The notes beneath the pieces were generated by a model, which was not told the DNA's origin, ran no database searches, and saw only the letters and a list, made by a program, of their open reading frames with translations. This document shows, piece after piece, positions 1-43,486 of a stretch of DNA of 64,000 nucleotides. The DNA is taken from sequence record PZ171032.1; one strand, written 5' to 3'. The position numbers and the translations under genes were made by a program. The number at the start of each line of letters is the position of its first letter. Position 1 is the first letter of the stretch. Source of the DNA: a phage.

Positions 1-63
1 TAGTGTCCGTATCACGGACAGTAGTGTCCGTATCACGGACAGTAGTGTCCGTATCACGGACAG
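1..63. repeat. three tandem copies of a 21-bp unit TAGTGTCCGTATCACGGACAG, each holding a 7-3-7 inverted repeat (TGTCCGT-ATC-ACGGACA); array is cut by the window edge
   Basis: Read directly: identical 21-mers at 1-21, 22-42, 43-63. Palindromic arms at 21-bp (two helical turn) spacing are typical of operators for a dimeric HTH protein. Confidence 0.9.
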
Positions 64-137
64 TTACTGACCTCTATTCCAGAGCGAACATAAAATATAC
101 GAATCCTTATAGTACAGATATTTAAGTTTTTACTGGT

Positions 138-488
138 CTAACCAGTTGTTGACATCCGAATAACTTCTTCTGGTGGCAAAACTTTGGAAAATGTGCATCT
201 TTTACCTCTCCCTTGTGTGGATGTTTCAACCACCCCTGCACACTCTAAAGTTTTAACGCACGCTGCTGCTTTTGTTTTCTTTATCCCAACATCTGCTGCA
301 ATTTTCCTTGTGCTGGGTGTGAAGCGTGAATTTCCTCCAAGCTTATACCAGTTGTGCAGGTAGCAGTATACGATCTTGTCATACAAGTCAAGAACAACAA
401 CCTCTCCAGTTGTGTCATTCAAAACTTTTGACATAGACAGTATTTCAAGGGGGACTTTAAGATATAGCAGCTTATCCCCATCTTTCAT
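138..488 (-). CDS. small putative DNA-binding protein (HTH/winged-helix-like)
   Basis: 116-aa ORF with AGGAG Shine-Dalgarno just upstream of the ATG; segment TRKIAADVGIKKTKAAACVKTLECAGVV looks like a helix-turn-helix. Sits next to the palindromic repeat array. No family assignment by eye. Confidence 0.5.
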   Translation of the reverse strand: MKDGDKLLYLKVPLEILSMSKVLNDTTGEVVVLDLYDKIVYCYLHNWYKLGGNSRFTPSTRKIAADVGIKKTKAAACVKTLECAGVVETSTQGRGKRCTFSKVLPPEEVIRMSTTG

Positions 489-535
489 ATCTCCTGATTC
501 TCCTTGTGTGGCAATTTTCTTTAAAATAGCAGGGA

Positions 536-1090
536 TTACTCCCCGCTGTCAATAGAAAAACTCATTGCAATACGGTATGCCTCTTCTAATGGTAAGAGTC
601 TCCCCCACACATCCCAACCGACATCAAGCTGCCTGCCAAACAACTGTTGTGTGGTTCCGTGAGCATGACCGAACAGTTGGACTGATCCGTGAGGCTTTCT
701 GTTCCACTTTGCAAATTGGTAATGGCTCATACAGATCAAATTCTTGTTGTGGCGAAGCTCGTAATAATCTACAACCTCATGACCGAACTCTTTCATAATT
801 CTGACAGTCGTCCTTGTGTCATGGTTGCCACGAACAAGAATAATATGTCCGTTCAGCATATTTAGAACATCTGGAAGCAATTTGTTGATATTCTTATCAT
901 TAGTGCACGCAATATCCCCCAAGTGAAACACAGTGTCTGCAGGTGACACAATAGAGTTCCACTTGGTGATGATTCCCGCATTCATACTGTCAAGATTGTG
1001 ATCATACTGAGATCTGTGTTTTTGACATGAATCAAACTCCATGACCCGCTGGTGGAGAAAGTGTGTGTCGCTTGTTACAAAGTATTTCAT
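536..1090 (-). CDS. calcineurin-like metallophosphoesterase (lambda-phosphatase / Ser-Thr phosphatase type)
   Basis: Motifs SDTHF, LGDIACT, VRGNHD, GHAH in canonical order. Start placed at the internal ATG (MKYF...) preceded by GAGGAA; the track ORF extends 35 codons further upstream into the next gene. Confidence 0.75.
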   Translation of the reverse strand: MKYFVTSDTHFLHQRVMEFDSCQKHRSQYDHNLDSMNAGIITKWNSIVSPADTVFHLGDIACTNDKNINKLLPDVLNMLNGHIILVRGNHDTRTTVRIMKEFGHEVVDYYELRHNKNLICMSHYQFAKWNRKPHGSVQLFGHAHGTTQQLFGRQLDVGWDVWGRLLPLEEAYRIAMSFSIDSGE

Positions 1091-1097
1091 ACATTCC

Positions 1098-1508
1098 TCA
1101 TTTAAGTTTAATGCAGTTTTTAAGCTGGCGTTCCATACGATCCACAACCTTGTCTGGAACATCATGAATGCTTTTATTACCGTGGAGGTTTTCAACCACG
1201 ATCACGGTATAACTATATCCATGACTGATCGCCATGTCAATATATTCTTGCACATATTTTTCTTTTGTAAACGTATTACTTACCACGATACGGTCGTAGC
1301 CCATACGCATCATATCTTCTACGTTATCTTTGCACCATTTTGCTGCAAGTGTTACTTTACTTGCATCCCAATTGTAATTGCCGTCATCGTCGTACCAGAA
1401 CATATCGTTCTCAAAATGTGGATACAGACCTTCTAAAGATAGCGCATTTGCCAGTGTTGATTTGCCAGACCCTGGTAGACCACGCACGATATATAGCATT
1501 TTAGACAT
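1098..1508 (-). CDS. P-loop kinase, polynucleotide 5'-kinase-like
   Basis: Walker A GLPGSGKST six residues after the chosen start MSKMLYIV (GGAGAG SD upstream); size and context fit a Pnk-type kinase. Confidence 0.55.
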   Translation of the reverse strand: MSKMLYIVRGLPGSGKSTLANALSLEGLYPHFENDMFWYDDDGNYNWDASKVTLAAKWCKDNVEDMMRMGYDRIVVSNTFTKEKYVQEYIDMAISHGYSYTVIVVENLHGNKSIHDVPDKVVDRMERQLKNCIKLK

Positions 1509-1568
1509 AGTAACTCTCCGTTTTAATTTTAATAATAGTATACCTAACTGTTTTGTTAATTTCAAGTG

Positions 1569-1598
1569 TTGACACCAGGTTATTTGTGTGGCAGAATA
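1569..1598 (+). promoter_or_regulatory. candidate sigma70 promoter (TTGACA, about 17 bp, CAGAAT) upstream of the RNA ligase gene
   Basis: Consensus -35 read directly; -10 is weak. Confidence 0.3.
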
Positions 1599-1626
1599 AA
1601 GGGACAAAATGACAAATGAGGAATGT

Positions 1627-2544
1627 ATGATGAAGTATTTTAATGCAGACGACCTGGTTGACAAAGGTCTTGTAACCAGCAGATATTACCCAGATCTTGG
1701 ATTAAAGATCTACAAATATGCCAGAAAAGTATTCTACAACAATTTATGGCATTTGTCTCCGCGTTTACTAGAGTGCCGAGGCATTGTTGTCGGTAATGAA
1801 GGAAATGTTGTGGCATGGCCCTTCACAAAAGTGTTTAATTTGGGAGAAAACTCCACCAACCTGCCTGACAATAAACTTGTGACGGCGGTAGAGAAAAAGA
1901 ACGGATTCCTTGGTGTGGTATCATCTCATAAAGGTGAACTATTGTTTTCAACAACCGGGTCTCTTGATTCTCCATATTGTAACCTTGCAAAGGAAACCAT
2001 CCAGGAGCAATGTGGTAATTTAGATCTTATCAAGAAGGTTATGGGCCATGAAAACATGACATTCATGTTTGAAATTTGTCACCCTTCAGATCCGCATATT
2101 GTTCAGGAAGATCATGGCGCATATTTGATAGGTTGCAGATATAATGATTCCGGAATAATGCTACCAGAAGCGGCTTTAGATGGGATTGCCAAATACCTTG
2201 GTGCAAAACGTCCTCACACTGTGCGTGAAATTCCGTTCAGTTATGCAAAAGAATTAGCTGCAGAAACAAGAGGTGAAGGGTATATGATTCGTAAGCCTTA
2301 CTACCCTTATGACCTGCAGCTGAAGATTAAGTCTCCATACTATCTGGCACGGAAGGCCGTAATGAGGGGTAAAGCTTGGAAGATTTGGGATGATGATATC
2401 TTTAAACGTATTGACGAAGAGTTTTATGGCATGGTAAACTTCATTCGTAGCAATTACACAGAAGATGTGTGGAACTGCCTCCTGGAGCAGGAACGCCGTG
2501 AGATACTTGATTACTATTTCCACAACGAGAACTATATGCAATGA
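1627..2544 (+). CDS. Rnl2-family RNA ligase (nucleotidyltransferase)
   Basis: EGYMIRKPYYPY and KIKSP match recalled T4 Rnl2 motifs IV (EGYVLKP) and V (KxK); candidate motif I KKNGF; motif III-like FMFE. Start set at ATGATG (1627) behind the same 17-nt initiation cassette used by the phosphatase gene. Confidence 0.55.
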   Translation: MMKYFNADDLVDKGLVTSRYYPDLGLKIYKYARKVFYNNLWHLSPRLLECRGIVVGNEGNVVAWPFTKVFNLGENSTNLPDNKLVTAVEKKNGFLGVVSSHKGELLFSTTGSLDSPYCNLAKETIQEQCGNLDLIKKVMGHENMTFMFEICHPSDPHIVQEDHGAYLIGCRYNDSGIMLPEAALDGIAKYLGAKRPHTVREIPFSYAKELAAETRGEGYMIRKPYYPYDLQLKIKSPYYLARKAVMRGKAWKIWDDDIFKRIDEEFYGMVNFIRSNYTEDVWNCLLEQERREILDYYFHNENYMQ

Positions 2545-2589
2545 AGAAGTGGAAAGTTATTTTTAATCACTCCAGCTTAAGGGGCCTGT

Positions 2590-3198
2590 ATGAAACTTGT
2601 ACATGGTGTTGGTGTTAATGATGCAGACTATCCTGTCAGGGTTTTAGACAAGGATACTGGAAAGAGAATCATGTGTCCTTTTTATATGACATGGTCAAAT
2701 ATGCTAGGAAGGTGCTACCTTAAAAACAAGAAATTTGAAGCTTATGCTATGGTAGAAGTCTGTGAAGAATGGAAAATCTTCAGCAACTTCAAGCGTTGGA
2801 TGGAAAAACAAGATTGGCAGGATAAATTTTTAGATAAAGATATCCTCTTTGAAAATAATCTTGTATACTGTCCAGAAGCGTGTATTTTTGTTCCCCGTGA
2901 AATAAACAACTTCTTTGTAGCAAGGATGCCACAAAGAGGGGAGTGTTTAATGGGAGTAAGAAGAAAAGGCCCATCTTTTGCTGCCTATTGCAAAGATGGG
3001 GTTAAGGACACGCAGGTTTATCTTGGAACCTTCCCCACGCAGATTGAGGCACATATGAGATACTTAGAATGTAAACTGCAACTTCTTAGAGATTTGATTA
3101 GAACTGTAGATGACAGTAGGTTGCTATTAGGATTACGAAGAATTGAAAATAAGATAGTTTTAGCTTTATCTTCAAAAACACCGATAGAGAATTTTTAG
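2590..3198 (+). CDS. homing-endonuclease-like DNA-binding protein with C-terminal AP2 domain
   Basis: C-terminal GVRRKGPSFAAYCKDGVKDTQVYLGTFPTQIEAHMRY fits the AP2 DNA-binding domain found in phage HNH/homing endonucleases; N-terminal YxxWxxMxxRC-type motif. No clear catalytic motif seen. Confidence 0.45.
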   Translation: MKLVHGVGVNDADYPVRVLDKDTGKRIMCPFYMTWSNMLGRCYLKNKKFEAYAMVEVCEEWKIFSNFKRWMEKQDWQDKFLDKDILFENNLVYCPEACIFVPREINNFFVARMPQRGECLMGVRRKGPSFAAYCKDGVKDTQVYLGTFPTQIEAHMRYLECKLQLLRDLIRTVDDSRLLLGLRRIENKIVLALSSKTPIENF

Positions 3199-3562: not shown

Positions 3563-4324
3563 ATGCGACGACTGATTATTATCTCCGGTGCTGGTTTGAG
3601 CGCTGAATCTGGTATTCCCACTTTCCGATCTGGTAGCACTGCAATGTGGGAGAATTTCAGCATCGATGAGGTGTGCAACATCCACACCTTTGCCAAGAAC
3701 TACTACAAGGTGCATGACTTTTACAATGCACGTCGTGTAGCTCTAGGCGGTGTTGAGCCTAACCTTGCACATCTTCGGATCGCTGAGTGGTATTCCCGCT
3801 GGTCTGGTCGTGTGATCAACCTTACCACCAATGTAGATGATTTGCTGGAGCGTGCTGGTGTAAAACATGAAGATATTTTACATGTTCACGGGTATTTGCC
3901 AGAAATAGTCTATGAGGACGATGAAGGAAGTGACGTCATTAAGGACATTGGATACTCTGAGGTAGATGCAGGAAAGTATACCTGGGTTAAACCTAATGTG
4001 GTGTTCTTCGGAGAAGTAGCTCCGAAGTATACAGACATGTATGACCTGTTGACTTCTCTTACAAGCAATGATATAGTTATCCTTGTAGGGTGTTCCAACA
4101 CAGTTATCAATTTTAACTGGGAGCTATTCCCTGCCTGCAATAAGGGCACCAAACTGCTGATCGTTAACAAATACGACTCACAGCATCTAGAGGAGAATGG
4201 CATTTCACGTAGTGATATTTACCAGTACGAGGATCGCGGCATCCCGGTTTGGTTTAACGGGGCGGTTGACGCTTTCTCTGATAAAACATTCATTGAGACC
4301 GTAGAAAACTTTATGGAACTTTAA
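3563..4324 (+). CDS. Sir2-family NAD-dependent deacylase / ADP-ribosyltransferase-like protein
   Basis: IISGAGLSAESGIPTFRS (GAGIS..GIP.FR motif), NVDDL, HVHG; lacks the paired CxxC zinc motif. Confidence 0.7.
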   Translation: MRRLIIISGAGLSAESGIPTFRSGSTAMWENFSIDEVCNIHTFAKNYYKVHDFYNARRVALGGVEPNLAHLRIAEWYSRWSGRVINLTTNVDDLLERAGVKHEDILHVHGYLPEIVYEDDEGSDVIKDIGYSEVDAGKYTWVKPNVVFFGEVAPKYTDMYDLLTSLTSNDIVILVGCSNTVINFNWELFPACNKGTKLLIVNKYDSQHLEENGISRSDIYQYEDRGIPVWFNGAVDAFSDKTFIETVENFMEL

Positions 4325-37683: not shown

Positions 37684-38012
37684 TGAAGATTGACCCGTTA
37701 CTGAAGGCTCGTGCAGAAAAAGCGTACACCATTAAGCTGACCAACCTGGTTCCTACTTGTCATCCAGATGTAGGTTGGCCTGAAGGTCTGGTAGAGGGGA
37801 CTGTAACAGCTGCATACCTTCCTAACATCAAATACCTTATGGAAATCTTAGAGATGGATGAGGAAACTGCAGAACAGTTCCAGTTGGATATGAAACAGAG
37901 TGGGACTCTGGTTATTCACGGGTGGTATAATACTAAAGATGCAGAAGACCCTCTGGTAACTTCTAATCTGGCATATGAAATCTTAGGGCCTTTGAACCTG
38001 GAGGAAGACTAA
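37683..38012 (+). CDS. small acidic protein (family A-like)
   Basis: MKIDPL... ends LNLEED. Confidence 0.45.
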   Translation: MKIDPLLKARAEKAYTIKLTNLVPTCHPDVGWPEGLVEGTVTAAYLPNIKYLMEILEMDEETAEQFQLDMKQSGTLVIHGWYNTKDAEDPLVTSNLAYEILGPLNLEED

Positions 38013-38299
38013 TGAAAGATCTGGTTAAGATTAAGATTAAAGATACCAATGGGGAGCTCAGCCATTTTGGAATTAATGATGGTGACGAGCTGATCGCACA
38101 CCTGCCTACCAAGGAGGTTGTAAGCAAAGCAGTTGCCGGAGAAGAAGCTGCAATGCAGGCTGCAGGTGTGGATGAAAACTATGTAGCTATGTGCATGTGC
38201 CGAGATCAGGTTGTTCTGTATAAAGCGTATCGACCAAACGGAGCCACGGAGTGGCTTGTATTCCGACCCGAAGGATATGAAATCTTAGAGGCACTATGA
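38012..38299 (+). CDS. small acidic protein (family A-like)
   Basis: MKDLVKIKIK... ends GYEILEAL. Confidence 0.45.
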   Translation: MKDLVKIKIKDTNGELSHFGINDGDELIAHLPTKEVVSKAVAGEEAAMQAAGVDENYVAMCMCRDQVVLYKAYRPNGATEWLVFRPEGYEILEAL

Positions 38300-38379
38300 T
38301 AAATCTTGCCAAGGTTGCAACGGCACTGTTAATTATTTGCTGGTCAGTAACCTTAACACTGTGTCTTGTATTTCAGTGA
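38296..38379 (+). CDS. tiny hydrophobic peptide, 27 aa
   Basis: ATGA overlap with upstream stop; MINLAKVATALLIICWSVTLTLCLVFQ. Confidence 0.3.
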   Translation: MINLAKVATALLIICWSVTLTLCLVFQ

Positions 38380-38388
38380 GGTGCTTGT

Positions 38389-38652
38389 ATGAACATCCTG
38401 ATGTGGGTTATAGCAGTGGCGTTTGTTGCATGTTTTTGCTGCTGGGTTGTGGTGAGGATTTCTGTAGCTACCCTTCGGAAGTTGGGGTTCTCAGAATGGG
38501 ATATTAATATCCTTTCTTTTCGCAATGAAACAATCTCAGCCGCCCTGCTTTGTAAGAAATTTAAGTGGGAACCTTGTGAGGTCATGAGCTATCTAAGAAC
38601 AGGCGATATCCCTGAAAGATTTAAAAAAGTTCTTGACGGCAAGGATAAATGA
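38389..38652 (+). CDS. small membrane protein
   Basis: N-terminal TM ILMWVIAVAFVACFCCWVVV. Confidence 0.45.
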   Translation: MNILMWVIAVAFVACFCCWVVVRISVATLRKLGFSEWDINILSFRNETISAALLCKKFKWEPCEVMSYLRTGDIPERFKKVLDGKDK

Positions 38653-38807
38653 CAGTATAGTGACTAACAAGAGGTGAGGGGTGACTGATTTTACTGAAGC
38701 TTTAATGATGGCCTTGTCTGTTTTAGCGCTATCGGTGTGTTTTGGGGCGTTATTCACATCTCTGGTTAAAGTTTTACATACAGTATTATTACCCAAGGGG
38801 CGCAGTA

Positions 38808-39059
38808 ATGACGAAGATTGACTTGAATGCTGGCGATCATGTTGTTGTCAAATGCATTGGAGATTATCTTGGATTCACAATCGGCAATACTTACGAGGCG
38901 ATAGTGGCGAAGGTTTATCATGATAAAGTCCTCAGTCTTGTATTTGACTGCGATGATGATGGGGATGACCGATACGTCTGTGAGGTGCTGGCACGAGACG
39001 ATAGTGAAGACCAGAAATTTCTGGTTATTGAACTGAACGGTATTTTTGTAGAACGTTAA
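38808..39059 (+). CDS. hypothetical acidic protein
   Basis: Start at MTKIDLNAGDH; the track ORF starts upstream at 38742. Confidence 0.45.
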   Translation: MTKIDLNAGDHVVVKCIGDYLGFTIGNTYEAIVAKVYHDKVLSLVFDCDDDGDDRYVCEVLARDDSEDQKFLVIELNGIFVER

Positions 39060-39087
39060 TTTAAAACAACATAAGGAGACTCTTACT

Positions 39088-39393
39088 ATGGCTAAATCTA
39101 AAGTTGAACTGTTCACCTCTCTTCCTTCTGACACTGCAGAGCGTGATCGCCTTCGCAAAACAATCGAAGAACTGGTGGAACTCCAACTTCAGATTAAAGA
39201 TCTGAAAGATGCCATTAAGGATATCATTCTCGTTGAGAAGCAGGATCATCTGTATTCTCCTAAATTCATCAAATCTTTGGTGGCTACAGAGTTTGATATC
39301 CGCTACGAAGCTGAAAAACGTCGCGCTAAGATTGAAGAAGAGGTTGAGCACATGTCTGAGGCAGACATTCTGTTCAAACGCTCTGTAGAATAA
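39088..39393 (+). CDS. hypothetical coiled-coil protein
   Basis: AAGGAG SD; heptad-like sequence. Confidence 0.5.
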   Translation: MAKSKVELFTSLPSDTAERDRLRKTIEELVELQLQIKDLKDAIKDIILVEKQDHLYSPKFIKSLVATEFDIRYEAEKRRAKIEEEVEHMSEADILFKRSVE

Positions 39394-39400
39394 TATGGCA

Positions 39401-39430
39401 GAGGGGCTACGGCCCCTCTTTCACTATTTG
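39401..39430 (+). terminator. rho-independent terminator (GAGGGGC-tacg-GCCCCTC + TTTCACTATTT)
   Basis: Read directly. Confidence 0.65.
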
Positions 39431-39445
39431 CAAAAGGAACCAGCT

Positions 39446-39772
39446 ATGAGAATGCCAATCACTGTGAAAGAGCTAAATGAACGTGATGCAGGTGGTCTAT
39501 GGCCTGCACGAAAAATCCGCTGCGTCTATATGAAAGAGAATCTTGAACACCTTGATCAACAGATCAAGGTCGGTGATATTTTCGAGGTCTTCTATTCCAA
39601 TCGTCGCAACTGGGAAACCATTCAGCCTTCTGGTTTTGTTCTTGCCAAACTTGACACTGGAGAAGTGATTATCCCTGGGTTGGATATTGTCTTCGAAATT
39701 ATCCAGGAGTGGGATCCGGATAAGATTAGATACGAAGAATTATTCGGTAAAGGTATTATCAAACCTGTGTGA
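39446..39772 (+). CDS. hypothetical protein
   Basis: Start moved to MRMPITV downstream of the terminator hairpin. Confidence 0.45.
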   Translation: MRMPITVKELNERDAGGLWPARKIRCVYMKENLEHLDQQIKVGDIFEVFYSNRRNWETIQPSGFVLAKLDTGEVIIPGLDIVFEIIQEWDPDKIRYEELFGKGIIKPV

Positions 39773-40080
39773 GGTGGATTATGTCTACAAAGGCAGCTAA
39801 ATACTCTTATATGCCATCAACCTCTGCAGAGGTAGACTTTAGTTTCGATGTATTTCCACTGTTTGAGGTGGTTCTGGCATACCCTACAATACTATCTACA
39901 CCTGAATCACTTGTGCCTGTTAAGTTGCAGAACGCTATGCATTCCATGCACTACAACAATAAATGTAGGCACAGATGGTGTCAGGACGAGGAAAAAGATT
40001 TGGATAGTTTGAGGGATTTTGACAGTCACCTTTTGACACCTTTTAGCTACTCCAATCTTGATAAGCCCTCTTGGGTATAG
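39769..40080 (+). CDS. hypothetical protein
   Basis: 103-aa ORF. Confidence 0.4.
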   Translation: MRWIMSTKAAKYSYMPSTSAEVDFSFDVFPLFEVVLAYPTILSTPESLVPVKLQNAMHSMHYNNKCRHRWCQDEEKDLDSLRDFDSHLLTPFSYSNLDKPSWV

Positions 40081-40104
40081 CAAAATATCAAATTTAAGAC
40101 ACCT

Positions 40105-40134
40105 AGGACGCTCTGTGGCGTCCTTTTCTTTATC
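40105..40134 (+). terminator. rho-independent terminator (AGGACGC-tctgtg-GCGTCCT + TTTCTTTAT)
   Basis: Read directly. Confidence 0.75.
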
Positions 40135-40293
40135 TGGTGCACGATTGCATACCTTTGACAGATAATCTCATTACAGAGCGTTTAAGAGCTTCCTACAAAC
40201 AAATCTCTCTTTCGAGCGTAGCGAGAACGCACGTCCGTTTTGACCCAAATCACCATACGCTCGGATTTTAACCAAACCCTCGCGGCGTTTCTG

Positions 40294-40322
40294 TTGACAC
40301 ATTACCGCTTCAGTGATAGTAT
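40294..40322 (+). promoter_or_regulatory. sigma70-type promoter (TTGACA-17-TAGTAT)
   Basis: Read directly; drives the small peptide gene at 40343. Confidence 0.55.
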
Positions 40323-40342
40323 CCACACATAGTTTGGAGAAT

Positions 40343-40444
40343 ATGGAATACACAATGAAAACACTGTCAGAGGTTTTAGTGGTGATCCTGATGATCATTA
40401 CGTCCATAGCAGCTGTTGCCGGAATACTCACGGGTGGAACATGA
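40343..40444 (+). CDS. tiny hydrophobic peptide, 33 aa
   Basis: GGAG SD; MEYTMKTLSEVLVVILMIITSIAAVAGILTGGT; stop overlaps next start (ATGA). Confidence 0.35.
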   Translation: MEYTMKTLSEVLVVILMIITSIAAVAGILTGGT

Positions 40445-40653
40445 TCAACACACATGCATCTGAAGAGATATCCGAAGGAGTGACCATATGTCCCTTGGCT
40501 GAGCTAGGGAAAGAGGAAAACTTCGATTCTGAAGATTCTCCATCTCCGTCCCAGGGAGACCCTGAGGCTGATGACCTAACGTGGGAGGATATCATAGCCA
40601 TCTGGTTCTCTATTATGCCTGAGCACGAAGAGTTCAGAGGTGGGAGACTATGA
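40441..40653 (+). CDS. hypothetical acidic protein
   Basis: 70-aa ORF coupled to the upstream peptide gene. Confidence 0.4.
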   Translation: MINTHASEEISEGVTICPLAELGKEENFDSEDSPSPSQGDPEADDLTWEDIIAIWFSIMPEHEEFRGGRL

Positions 40654-40774
40654 AGCACCGAGCCCACACAGGTTCCTCATGCTTTAGCATGGCCTGAAGA
40701 GGCAAACGTGCATAATTCCTGTGCATTGGAACGTATAAAACCCTGTTCACACTCTCATTTCCAGAGGAGATTTC

Positions 40775-40990
40775 ATGAAAATAGAAATATTTGGTGGGGC
40801 TGACAACACTCGTGGCCTGATTTACCTTGAATTCGATGAATCATACCTGCCAGAGGTGTTAAATATGGACTCTGTTGCTGAGGCTTTGGGGGTAAGTCCT
40901 AAAGAACTCCACTCTTGTGCTGAGATCGATGGTTGGGAAGAGACCATGAACATTGATTTCAGTGAAGTAGGTGATGAACCGCTGGACTGA
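40775..40990 (+). CDS. small acidic protein (family A-like), last gene of the rightward block
   Basis: MKIEIFGG... acidic C-terminus. Confidence 0.45.
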   Translation: MKIEIFGGADNTRGLIYLEFDESYLPEVLNMDSVAEALGVSPKELHSCAEIDGWEETMNIDFSEVGDEPLD

Positions 40991-41119
40991 CACACAATAT
41001 TAGATGTCCGGCTAAAGTGCTGGAAGCACCTATAGCATATCTTTCAACTAAATTTCCTACCACCACAATCACTTACCTCCCACACATGACTGTTTGCTTG
41101 TTTAGTGAGCAGTCATGCC

Positions 41120-41147
41120 TTGACATTCTTGCCTATCCTGATAAAAT
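41120..41147 (+). promoter_or_regulatory. candidate sigma70 promoter (TTGACA-16-TAAAAT) firing into the ORF-free region
   Basis: Read directly; no ORF of 60 aa or more follows for about 900 bp. Confidence 0.4.
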
Positions 41148-42489
41148 TAAGTTCTTCTCTTTTCTTTTACCGAGTAATTCGGGTTTTCTGTTCTCTTCGG
41201 TTTGAAGGGGTATGGAGATACACCTGAGTGAACAGGGTGAACAACCGAACATTCGGCTATGGCATTAGCATGGCGAAGCGAACGGGTGACGAAAGAGGGG
41301 CCGGAGGACACCAGTCACTGCCATATGATATATGGGTGATAACCTGAAGAGTCTGAATAAGTGTTTAAGTACCAGTCAGAGGAAAAGGTGAATGGTAGCC
41401 GAAGGGGGAGGGGGGGTTTCTTGTATCTTTAATTTGTATATTATGTATACACTTGTAAACCAATTTCATCTGAATCTGTTTACCATACAAAGTGGATTGA
41501 GACAAATATTACCTATTAAACTTGAATTATTTATAGAAAATACCACAACACACCTTAAGTCTTTGATTTTACACATAAATCCTACAGATATTCAACCTCC
41601 ATATTTAACATACTTGTAACATATCCTATACCACACCTGCCTGATCAATTTCCCCAACTACATCCTCTATATTTTACCTGCCTGTACTACCCCTGCCCCG
41701 CCGGGAGTCCCGTCATATCTGGCTTTCCAGCAAATATCCCACCAACAAATATCATTGCCTGAAGAGGGTTTCATCCCATAATACATGCCTTATCTGAAGA
41801 GCGCTTCATACACCACGTAAATTTTTTAATTGACCCCTCCCCGCCGCCGGAGAGGTTGGCTTTTCCCACACAGACCTGAAGAGTCAGCCAGAAATATCTG
41901 AATAGGCCCAATTCTACCACGATTTTGACCTGACCTACAGGGAGGCCCGAAGGGTCTAGCTTTCAGCTAGAGTCCTTGCAGGACCTACAGGAGTGCTGCC
42001 AGGCGGACGGAATGGGAATACTTCTCATTTTTATAATAATTCTCAAATATCGAGGCAGTGAGGCAAATTAATAGGTGAGGCCGTTCACACAGTGGCACAA
42101 CATTTGCAACCTATCTTGTGTGGGGGAATGATAATACCTATCATTGTGAGAACCATTATCATTACGGGCAATTTAACATAATACCCATTATGCGCACCAC
42201 TGGCGATACATACAGGGATTGATAACATGAGTTACAGTTTACGCATATAACAATTATATTTCTTATCATTTGTGTGGGATATAGTTAGCAGCCAATAGAT
42301 TAGATATTGACCTGCATACTTCCAACCGTCTAGACGTCTAAACGCCCACACACCAAGGATTATACATACACTCCTGAATGTAAACAGGGCCGCAAAAATG
42401 CTACCATACAAGCTTGTAAATTTTTCATGCAGCACTTGACAAAGAGGAGAAAAACTTGTCTGACATAATGTGACCTAACTGACACAACA

Positions 42490-42590
42490 TGACACTTTTA
42501 CACACCTATTAGTTTACACACTGGATTGTTTACATTCCTGATTGTTCACATGCTAACCATTTACATGATTGACTGTTTACACACCGATAA
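42490..42590. repeat. iteron-like array: six copies of a TTTACA(C/T)-containing motif at roughly 15-bp spacing
   Basis: Read directly: cTTTTACACAcc, aGTTTACACAct, tGTTTACATtc, tGTTCACATgc, cATTTACATga, tGTTTACACAcc. Confidence 0.6.
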
Positions 42591-42594
42591 TCAG

Positions 42595-42843
42595 CCATGC
42601 CATTCGTTTGCATGACAATAATTATACATGACAATAATCGCACTGATTATAATTAGCATGACATAATATAAAAGCAGGGCAACTATTAGCAGATCTATAG
42701 TTGCCCTGCTTGTTATGTCATGATTAACTAAATACAAGGCAACTATGATCTGATTAATAGTTTGCAGACAAACTATCACGGGGGTGATGGTTACTGCTTT
42801 TATATTATGTCGCGACTCCGTCGCGCCATGCCATTCGTTTGCA
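42595..42843. repeat. direct repeat pair CCATGCCATTCGTTTGCAT (about 230 bp apart) flanking a perfect 14-bp-stem palindrome (42673-42710) and CATGACAATAAT repeats
   Basis: Read directly. Confidence 0.6.
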
Positions 42844-43454
42844 TAGTTGCCTTATTGTTACAGGTAAAATAATTACATTATTAATTATTTCTTATCTTTC
42901 TCTTAGTCATCTAATGATTCCAGTCAGTATAGTAATGTACAGTAAACATTAGACGACTAAATATTTCTATGCTTATGATAACTTGCCGTGACAATTTCGG
43001 ACTGTTTACGAAAAATGTTGACACCTGGGCGGGTTTATGTTATGCAGTTTACACGAATAATTATTTCATACAGGTATTGACTATTCCGTTATTCTGTGGT
43101 TGGAATAAATACTTTGCAGGCTATAGAATGGTGTGCGTACGTGAATTCTAAGATCTGGCGGCTATAGTTACACCCGATTTTTCACGTAGAACACGCTTTT
43201 TGGTTTGTGTAAGTGTATGACTTATAAAGATTTTTAGTTGTTGACAGGATATTGAAGATGTGCATCAGGTTAAATTTTGTGCAATAGCTGCAGTACGTGC
43301 ATTTTTGGAAGGAAAAACGTGTAAAAATGGTCCTGCTACCACATAATGAAAGATTATGCAATAGCTATTTTATATGTATATTTGTACAGTGTGTGGGATT
43401 GATGGCTCGTCAATTATTCCACTTGCTGGGTGGGGCCGTTTGTGGTAGGAGGAG

Positions 43455-43486
43455 AGCAGACAAAAAGAAAGGGGCCTAAGCCCCTT
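43455..43486 (-). terminator. rho-independent terminator for the leftward block (AAGGGGC-ttag-GCCCCTT + TCTTTTTGTCTG on minus strand)
   Basis: Read directly, just downstream of the last minus-strand gene. Confidence 0.7.

Follow-up and report, generated by a model that had tools for sequence, protein, structure and literature searches.

A phased 21-bp repeat array beside a RepA-NTD-like protein gene as a candidate replication origin of an rV5-like coliphage

Results

The repeat array and the adjoining gene

The phage DNA analysed here is a stretch of 64,000 nt from the sequence record PZ171032.1, and "the window" always denotes this stretch at its full length. It begins within an array of 21-bp direct repeats, each of which is called a unit below, and the array is followed by the gene of a 116-amino acid (aa) winged-helix protein. 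The features at this locus are as follows.

1..21, no strand: putative iteron unit, the first visible; half-sites TGTCCG at 4-9 and CGGACA at 15-20; aligns with unit 2 where relatives have four
22..42, no strand: putative iteron unit, same as the first visible unit; half-sites at 25-30 and 36-41
43..64, no strand: putative iteron unit with identical core; half-sites at 46-51 and 57-62; followed by 'gtta', as after the last unit in all relatives
65..137, no strand: spacer from the array to the stop codon, 73 bp; shows little conservation in the relative L027 (70% identity)
138..488, minus strand: winged-helix protein gene, 116 aa; homologue of the N-terminal DNA-binding/dimerisation domain of RepA of the phage satellite PLE (RepA_N-like fold); proposed iteron binder
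523..552, minus strand: sigma-70-like promoter of the 116-aa gene (TTGACA, 18 nt, TATTTT with TG); annotated as P76 in phage rV5

The sequence TAGTGTCCGTATCACGGACAG was found three times at positions 1-64 with zero mismatches, and Tandem Repeats Finder (TRF) reported a period of 21, 3.0 copies, and 100% matches with a score of 128, whereas every other tandem repeat in the window scored 42 or less. Each unit contains the interrupted palindrome TGTCCGT-ATC-ACGGACA, which can be generalised to the half-sites TGTCCG-N5-CGGACA. These findings agree with the initial annotation, which had described three perfect repeats around this palindrome about 75 bp from the end of the 116-aa gene; the measured distance is 73 bp, because the stop codon of the gene occupies positions 138-140. 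The centres of the two half-sites are 11 bp apart, corresponding to one helical turn, and the direct repeats, at least three in number, recur every 21 bp, approximately two turns, as the annotation had also noted. When the 17-mer TGTCCGT-ATC-ACGGACA was searched for with up to three mismatches, no copy was observed outside the array in the 64 kb. The scan gave 6 strand-hits in total against 0.08 matches in shuffled sequences, and none of the 100 shuffles reached 6.

The array in related phages

For window positions 1-3000, 121 matching phage records were found (90-98% identity), practically all of them rV5-like coliphages of the genus Vequintavirus; judged by this sequence similarity, the source of the window is an rV5-like coliphage of that genus. 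Three-unit arrays were found in V18, bov10K2, and JES2013, and four-unit arrays in rV5, naam, ECP2303, Aya, SYGMH1, and MiataMamis, with start-to-start spacings of 22, 21, and 21 bp. Position 1 of the window aligns to unit 2, and therefore one unit has been cut off by the window edge; the expectation that the array continues past the edge is thus upheld by comparison, relatives having one further unit upstream. The first visible unit is preceded by 'tag', like internal units, and unit 1 of the relatives by 'tatg'.

The three visible units do not differ from one another, even in the 'gtag' spacer, whereas units 2 and 3 have diverged in all ten relatives inspected, and the best identity of window positions 1-137 among 119 records was 95.6%. 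Duplication of the last unit over the inner ones would explain the identical units; an assembly artefact in the repeat may also be their source. The short-read contig of one relative stops within the array, and the window likewise begins within it. Comparable restructuring of iterons has been documented in PLE1 (PMC8263062).

Directly upstream of unit 1, all relatives carry an AT-rich tract of ~130 bp with 22-26% GC. We assembled the complete rV5 genome from three fetched pieces (137,947 bp, mean GC 43.6%) and found that positions 65024-65143 form the genome-wide lowest-GC 120-bp window (19.2%; the runner-up has 25%). The rV5 array, at 65152-65232, abuts this minimum and is the top tandem repeat of the genome (TRF 126/110; next 65), and no copy of its motif was found elsewhere in the rV5 genome. 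As single-stranded DNA, the AT-rich tract showed no unusual folding (z -1.1). In phage naam (L001), the tract contains a perfect 9-bp inverted repeat, GATCTAGTA at 3881-3889 and TACTAGATC at 3930-3938, with 40 bp between the arms and two GATC (Dam) sites within. Beyond the tract, a further block is conserved in all Vequintavirus relatives.

L001 (phage naam) 3560-3850, equivalent to rV5 ~64700-65020: GC-rich block, outside the window

This block of ~300 bp has 55-60% GC and is poor in open reading frames (ORFs), and it is probably non-coding, since 18 nt are deleted from it in rV5 and 1 nt in V18. It matched no Rfam family, and RNAalifold gave 98 pairs with 1 compensatory change, the variation being too little for this analysis. 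A structured RNA is one possible identity of the block; another is a portion of the origin region.

The 116-aa protein

In Pfam searches, the 116-aa protein alone scored just below the cut-offs of DUF6945 (27.4 bits; cut-off 28) and HTH_36 (24.5 bits; cut-off 25). RepA_N (PF06970) was not among its matches at E ≤1, and Phage_rep_O did not match. The protein was assigned to PHROG 12838, "replication initiation protein" (5e-80). An exhaustive HMMER search against 1.84 billion representatives returned one strong cluster and about a dozen weak matches, most of the latter with HTH_36, DUF6945, DnaD_N, or RepL signatures, indicating a very small family. Searches for close relatives (a word-index protein search and an IMG/VR locus search) gave near-identical proteins only or nothing, and tblastn against phages gave Vequintavirus only.

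With a 5-sequence alignment, the AlphaFold2 model was unusable (predicted local distance difference test, pLDDT, 45). Inclusion of the weak HMMER matches recovered 27 proteins, and a 26-sequence alignment, which was needed for modelling, gave a pLDDT of 80.3 and a predicted template modelling score (pTM) of 0.76. The model consists of an N-terminal beta-hairpin, three helices (recognition helix, 71-83), a two-stranded wing, and a short C-terminal helix. Its whole-length Foldseek matches included the staphylococcal RepA_N N-terminal domains 4PQL, 5KBJ, and 4PT7 (110-114 alignment columns). When the family profile was searched against the Protein Data Bank (PDB), the entry 4RO3, the N-terminal domain of RepA from the Vibrio cholerae phage satellite PLE, was matched over profile positions 7-111 with an E value of 5.7e-14; the next entry had 3e-4, and repressors were ten orders of magnitude worse than 4RO3 in this sequence-profile search. 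The profile also matched gp88 (Odn) of phage ICP1 (E 4.5e-12). PLE RepA, an initiator of the RepA_N type, has been shown to shift its semi-palindromic iterons in electrophoretic mobility shift assays, and PLE replication depends on these iterons (PMC7145576, PMC8263062).

The 116-aa protein ends after the wing and one helix, a length conserved in 119 phage records. On the basis of sequence and model, we describe it as a stand-alone RepA-NTD-like (N-terminal domain-like; DUF6945) protein and not as a RepA_N initiator proper. This name was chosen because neither Pfam RepA_N nor Phage_rep_O is matched, the C-terminal domain is absent, and the repeats lie outside the ORF. The gene is already called a replication initiation protein in RefSeq, via PHROGs; many records have it as a transcriptional regulator, and one record carries a 'repeat_region'.

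These assignments also bear on whether the protein might be a small terminase subunit that acts on the repeats as a packaging (pac) site and starts the headful packaging series. No small terminase is annotated in these phages, their genomes are headful-packaged, and the array locus lies within the same leftward gene block as terL; moreover, the winged-helix fold and the binding of repeated elements are known from some small terminases, for example lambda Nu1. However, no terminase small-subunit family was found among the Pfam and PHROG matches of the 116-aa protein, whose fold and sequence are RepA-NTD-like. In addition, terL is ~4.3 kb off, with tRNA and spanin genes between, and an extreme AT tract is a feature of origins and not of pac sites. 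A pac site is accordingly very unlikely in our estimation. The neighbouring small ORFs matched no functional family, and none of them is a small terminase.

Conservation of the units and of their place beside the gene

We compared 37 units from 11 genomes, which comprise 11 distinct sequences and are not phylogenetically independent. The left half-site TGTCCG was invariant in 37/37 units, and the right half-site CGGACA varied at one position, in unit 2 only (7/37 units). Free variation was seen at the central positions 7, 8, 10, and 11. Such a pattern is as would be expected of two recognition helices placed in successive major grooves.

The same comparison argues against a role in RNA, in which 3' hairpins formed by the palindromes in the minus-strand transcript would terminate transcription or stabilise the mRNA in the manner of the repetitive extragenic palindromic (REP) elements. 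The array does stand directly after a gene, and minus-strand RNA of window positions 1-140 is predicted to be stable (-46.2 kcal/mol, z -3.96), but this z-score says little because any tandem palindrome folds well. No compensatory change was seen in the 37 units, and the recurrent stem change in unit 2, A to G, would produce a C-A mismatch on the transcribed minus strand. No T-run follows the array, the terminator scan found none, and neither the strict 21-22-bp phasing nor the conserved unpaired flanks would be needed for hairpins. An RNA element is thus highly improbable.

In the metagenomic relative L027, the protein is 70% identical, with the recognition helix and wing kept, and the same half-sites are found at the same distance past the stop codon despite the diverged 73-bp spacer. 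Furthermore, homologues of ~26% identity in Seunavirus, Mydovirus, and two metagenomic contigs adjoin different semi-palindromic direct repeats. The repeats of the Seunavirus/Mydovirus type are a pair of GTGCTCAAATTGAnnnTAGGC, 22-23 bp apart, preceded by a T-rich, GATC-containing tract. Compared with these genera, the Vequintavirus gene lies on the opposite side and is inverted, whereas the order of T-rich tract and then repeats is kept; this conserved order therefore suggests that the AT tract and the repeats form one unit. In the group of homologues with 182-195 aa, the only repeats observed were two AGGTACA heptamers that form a weak pair at a distance of 22 bp. Longer homologues (P0009, P0016, P0017, P0019, P0025-P0027, and P0039) have acidic tails ending in -PF or -NF, such as DEDPDAPF, DTGEPF, and CDEAPF, and the 116-aa protein has no such tail. 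The tails resemble the C-terminal tips of single-stranded DNA-binding protein (SSB) and T7 gp2.5, which recruit replisome proteins.

Two further lines were not used. Synteny via the neighbouring phosphoesterase gene was of no use, as other genera arrange the region differently. A motif scan of public collections found tandem TGTCCG-N5-CGGACA in the high-GC IMG/VR contigs L006 (4906-5030) and L007 (820-880), within Rep-like ORFs and straight after an N-terminal winged helix-turn-helix (wHTH), L007 matching 'replication initiation' PHROGs, and also in seven high-GC contigs of metagenome-assembled genomes beside assorted helix-turn-helix genes. These contigs were set aside because their proteins have no detectable similarity to the 116-aa protein, and convergence or chance may account for them.

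The layout in the other genera is relevant to another possible role of the repeats, an operator array through which the wHTH protein would repress or activate transcription from its own operon into the downstream block (the GC-rich segment, gp73-72, tRNA genes, and late genes), or act as a roadblock, without any part in replication. The Seunavirus/Mydovirus-type repeats lie between the AT-rich tract and the start codon of the gene, a typical autoregulatory position, although this layout does not discriminate because initiators commonly autoregulate too. The 116-aa protein is, moreover, a small DNA-binding domain without an obvious effector domain, and many database records call its gene a transcriptional regulator. 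On the other hand, the Vequintavirus array is 3' of the gene, the motif was not found in the gene promoter (523..552) or elsewhere in the window or in rV5, and a scan limited to the sigma-70 consensus detected no promoter in or beside the array or the AT tract. The sole strong relative of the protein is an initiator domain and not a repressor family. Since neither a promoter nor a second site was found, the operator reading is weakened, and we regard it as unlikely. The initial annotation had proposed sites for cooperative binding of a dimeric regulator. What stands of this is that the repeats look like sites for cooperative binding by a dimeric winged-helix protein, for which the neighbouring 116-aa product is the obvious candidate; the word operator, in contrast, does not suit a locus where neither a sigma-70-like promoter nor a second site was found and whose protein has an initiator domain as its strong relative.

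Comparison with known replication systems

One of the closest characterised systems is that of PLE (PDB 4RO3; Barth et al. 2020, NAR, PMC7145576, and 2021, eLife, PMC8263062). PLE RepA has a C-terminal domain, whereas the 116-aa protein corresponds to the N-terminal domain alone, and the PLE iterons are ~30 bp with a poly-A centre, whereas the units here measure 21 bp and vary over 5 bp at the centre. As a satellite, PLE uses the replisome of ICP1; the putative origin array described here belongs to the phage's own genome.

The RepA_N plasmid initiators of Firmicutes (pSK41, pTZ2162; 4PQL, 5KBJ, 4PT7, and 4PTA) resemble the protein in the fold of the DNA-binding/dimerisation domain over its whole length, and their iterons, which contain inverted sub-repeats, are bound by a dimer, as is proposed here. 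The plasmid origin is within the rep gene, with the iterons just 3' of the part encoding the N-terminal domain, whereas here they lie 73 bp past the ORF. Further differences are that the 116-aa protein does not match Pfam RepA_N and lacks the C-terminal domain, and that the replicon, a virulent myovirus of 137 kb, has a Gram-negative host.

The array is also like the lambda origin, which has four phased, dyad-symmetric iterons bound by winged-helix N-terminal dimers and an AT-rich unwinding region directly after them, and PHROG families of 'replication initiation O-like' proteins match the Seunavirus homologue. However, the lambda origin is inside gene O and the Vequintavirus array is outside the ORF; lambda O has a C-terminal domain recruiting P-DnaB, whereas rV5-like phages have their own primase-helicase.

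Lastly, the ICP1 origin-directed nuclease Odn has the same RepA-NTD-like DNA-binding domain, so that the domain is reusable beyond initiation; its N-terminal domain copies that of PLE RepA. Odn differs in having a GIY-YIG/T5orf172 nuclease domain and a foreign origin as its target, whereas the 116-aa protein has no nuclease and its presumed sites are by its own gene. Over ICP1 45-75 kb, which includes the coverage-mapped origin at ~60 kb, no homologue or similar repeat was found at the origin, Odn at 47.8-48.6 kb being the sole match.

Neighbouring genes and other regions

Further into the window, the following genes are found.

536-1090, minus strand: metallophosphoesterase
~1098-1508, minus strand: AAA_33 kinase-like protein
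1609-2544, plus strand: T4 Rnl1-type RNA ligase

The group at 536-2544 looks like an RNA-repair module. The same genes occur near wHTH homologues in unrelated contigs (kinase and ligase in L028; phosphoesterase and ligase in L031).

These neighbours bear on the suggestion, also made initially, that the array consists of genome-terminus or partition-site iterons. Phased repeats next to a gene for a small DNA-binding protein do occur at centromere-like sites of the parC/parS type and at some phage ends. Vequintavirus genomes are nevertheless circularly permuted and headful-packaged (PMC3606486, PMC8407724, PMC13211470) and have no fixed ends, and their GenBank records start at many positions, which speaks against a terminus. 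As for partition, the phage is virulent and no ParA/ParM-type gene is nearby, the metallophosphoesterase and the AAA_33 kinase not being genes of the ParA/ParB type. We give hardly any credence to either role. The iterons of a replication origin, which we favour, were not named in that annotation.

The rV5 genome paper described an ORF-free stretch of 2.6 kb (rV5 104013-106618), which corresponds to window ~40990-43480 and lies between convergent gene blocks. Two of the lowest-GC windows in the genome fall within it, as do weak tandem repeats of 15-16 bp, and it is an alternative site for an origin or pac. No Rfam match was found over window 38000-42500, a scan that ended before the ~980 bp at 42501-43480. 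Eighteen GenBank records (MG0656xx) labelled 'Campylobacter phage', with Campylobacter jejuni as the host, are ~97% identical to the window coliphage and are probably mislabelled or contaminant assemblies.

Discussion

Taken together, these findings favour an interpretation of the array as the iterons of a phage replication origin, with only the right-hand part of the array visible in the window; judging from comparative sequence evidence, we put its probability at roughly 0.6. Of the features of an iteron origin, phased direct repeats and an adjoining RepA-NTD-like gene are present in the window, and the AT-rich region is present in the relatives. We infer that the 116-aa protein binds the repeats and that this binding starts replication. 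Each semi-palindromic unit would be bound by one dimer, and because the units recur every 21-22 bp, or two turns, 3 to 4 or more dimers would be aligned on one face of the DNA. By bending or stressing the DNA, the resulting nucleoprotein array may open the neighbouring ~130 bp, which are very AT-rich and at which the phage's own T7-like replisome (gp4-type primase-helicase, PolA, and SF1B helicase) would load. Primase-helicase and PolA replisome genes have been listed for rV5 (PMC3606486).

Several points weigh against this interpretation. RepA_N initiators depend on a C-terminal effector domain to function in replication; the 116-aa protein lacks one and may by itself only mark or regulate the site. 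Because the window stops short of the AT tract and the first unit, both are known only from relatives that are ~97% identical. An initiator is dispensed with in many large virulent phages, in which replication begins from transcripts or through recombination. The cumulative GC-skew of rV5 has its global minimum at 66689, 1.5 kb from the array, but this is weak evidence because it coincides with the divergence of transcription; the rV5 genome paper took the same view of GC skew, and it sought the replication origin and did not locate it (PMC3606486). In the literature, we found no paper that links the repeats, the AT minimum, and the 116-aa protein, or that places a Vequintavirus origin. Finally, no DnaA box (TTATCCACA, up to one mismatch) was found in positions 3840-4070 of L001 (phage naam); similar sites number 6 over the locus against 2.6 expected, with no cluster. 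The missing boxes nonetheless count neither for nor against an origin in a phage with a replisome of its own, and DnaA boxes occur in many plasmid origins but not in all.

A variant with a split or minimal initiator appears rather doubtful to us. Here the lone RepA_N-type N-terminal domain would only mark and bend the iterons, and another phage protein would do the recruiting, the role of the C-terminal domain or of the acidic tail ending in PF in the relatives. The homogenised array would then reflect restructuring of the iterons under selection, exerted for example by a nuclease that targets origins or by a satellite that copies them, as in the arms race between ICP1 Odn and PLE1-Mut.

If the 116-aa protein is merely a regulator, the finding is an ordinary one. 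The iteron-origin interpretation, in turn, offers a concrete origin candidate of ~220 bp, comprising the iterons and the AT tract, together with a 116-aa putative binder. Isolates of rV5-like phages (Vequintavirinae) are widespread, and these phages serve in the biocontrol of O157 and as components of phage-therapy cocktails; a mapped origin would aid both phage engineering and the interpretation of coverage data. If the interpretation is true, the locus would be a case, in a virulent phage of a Gram-negative host, of a RepA_N-type DNA-binding domain working without its C-terminal domain.
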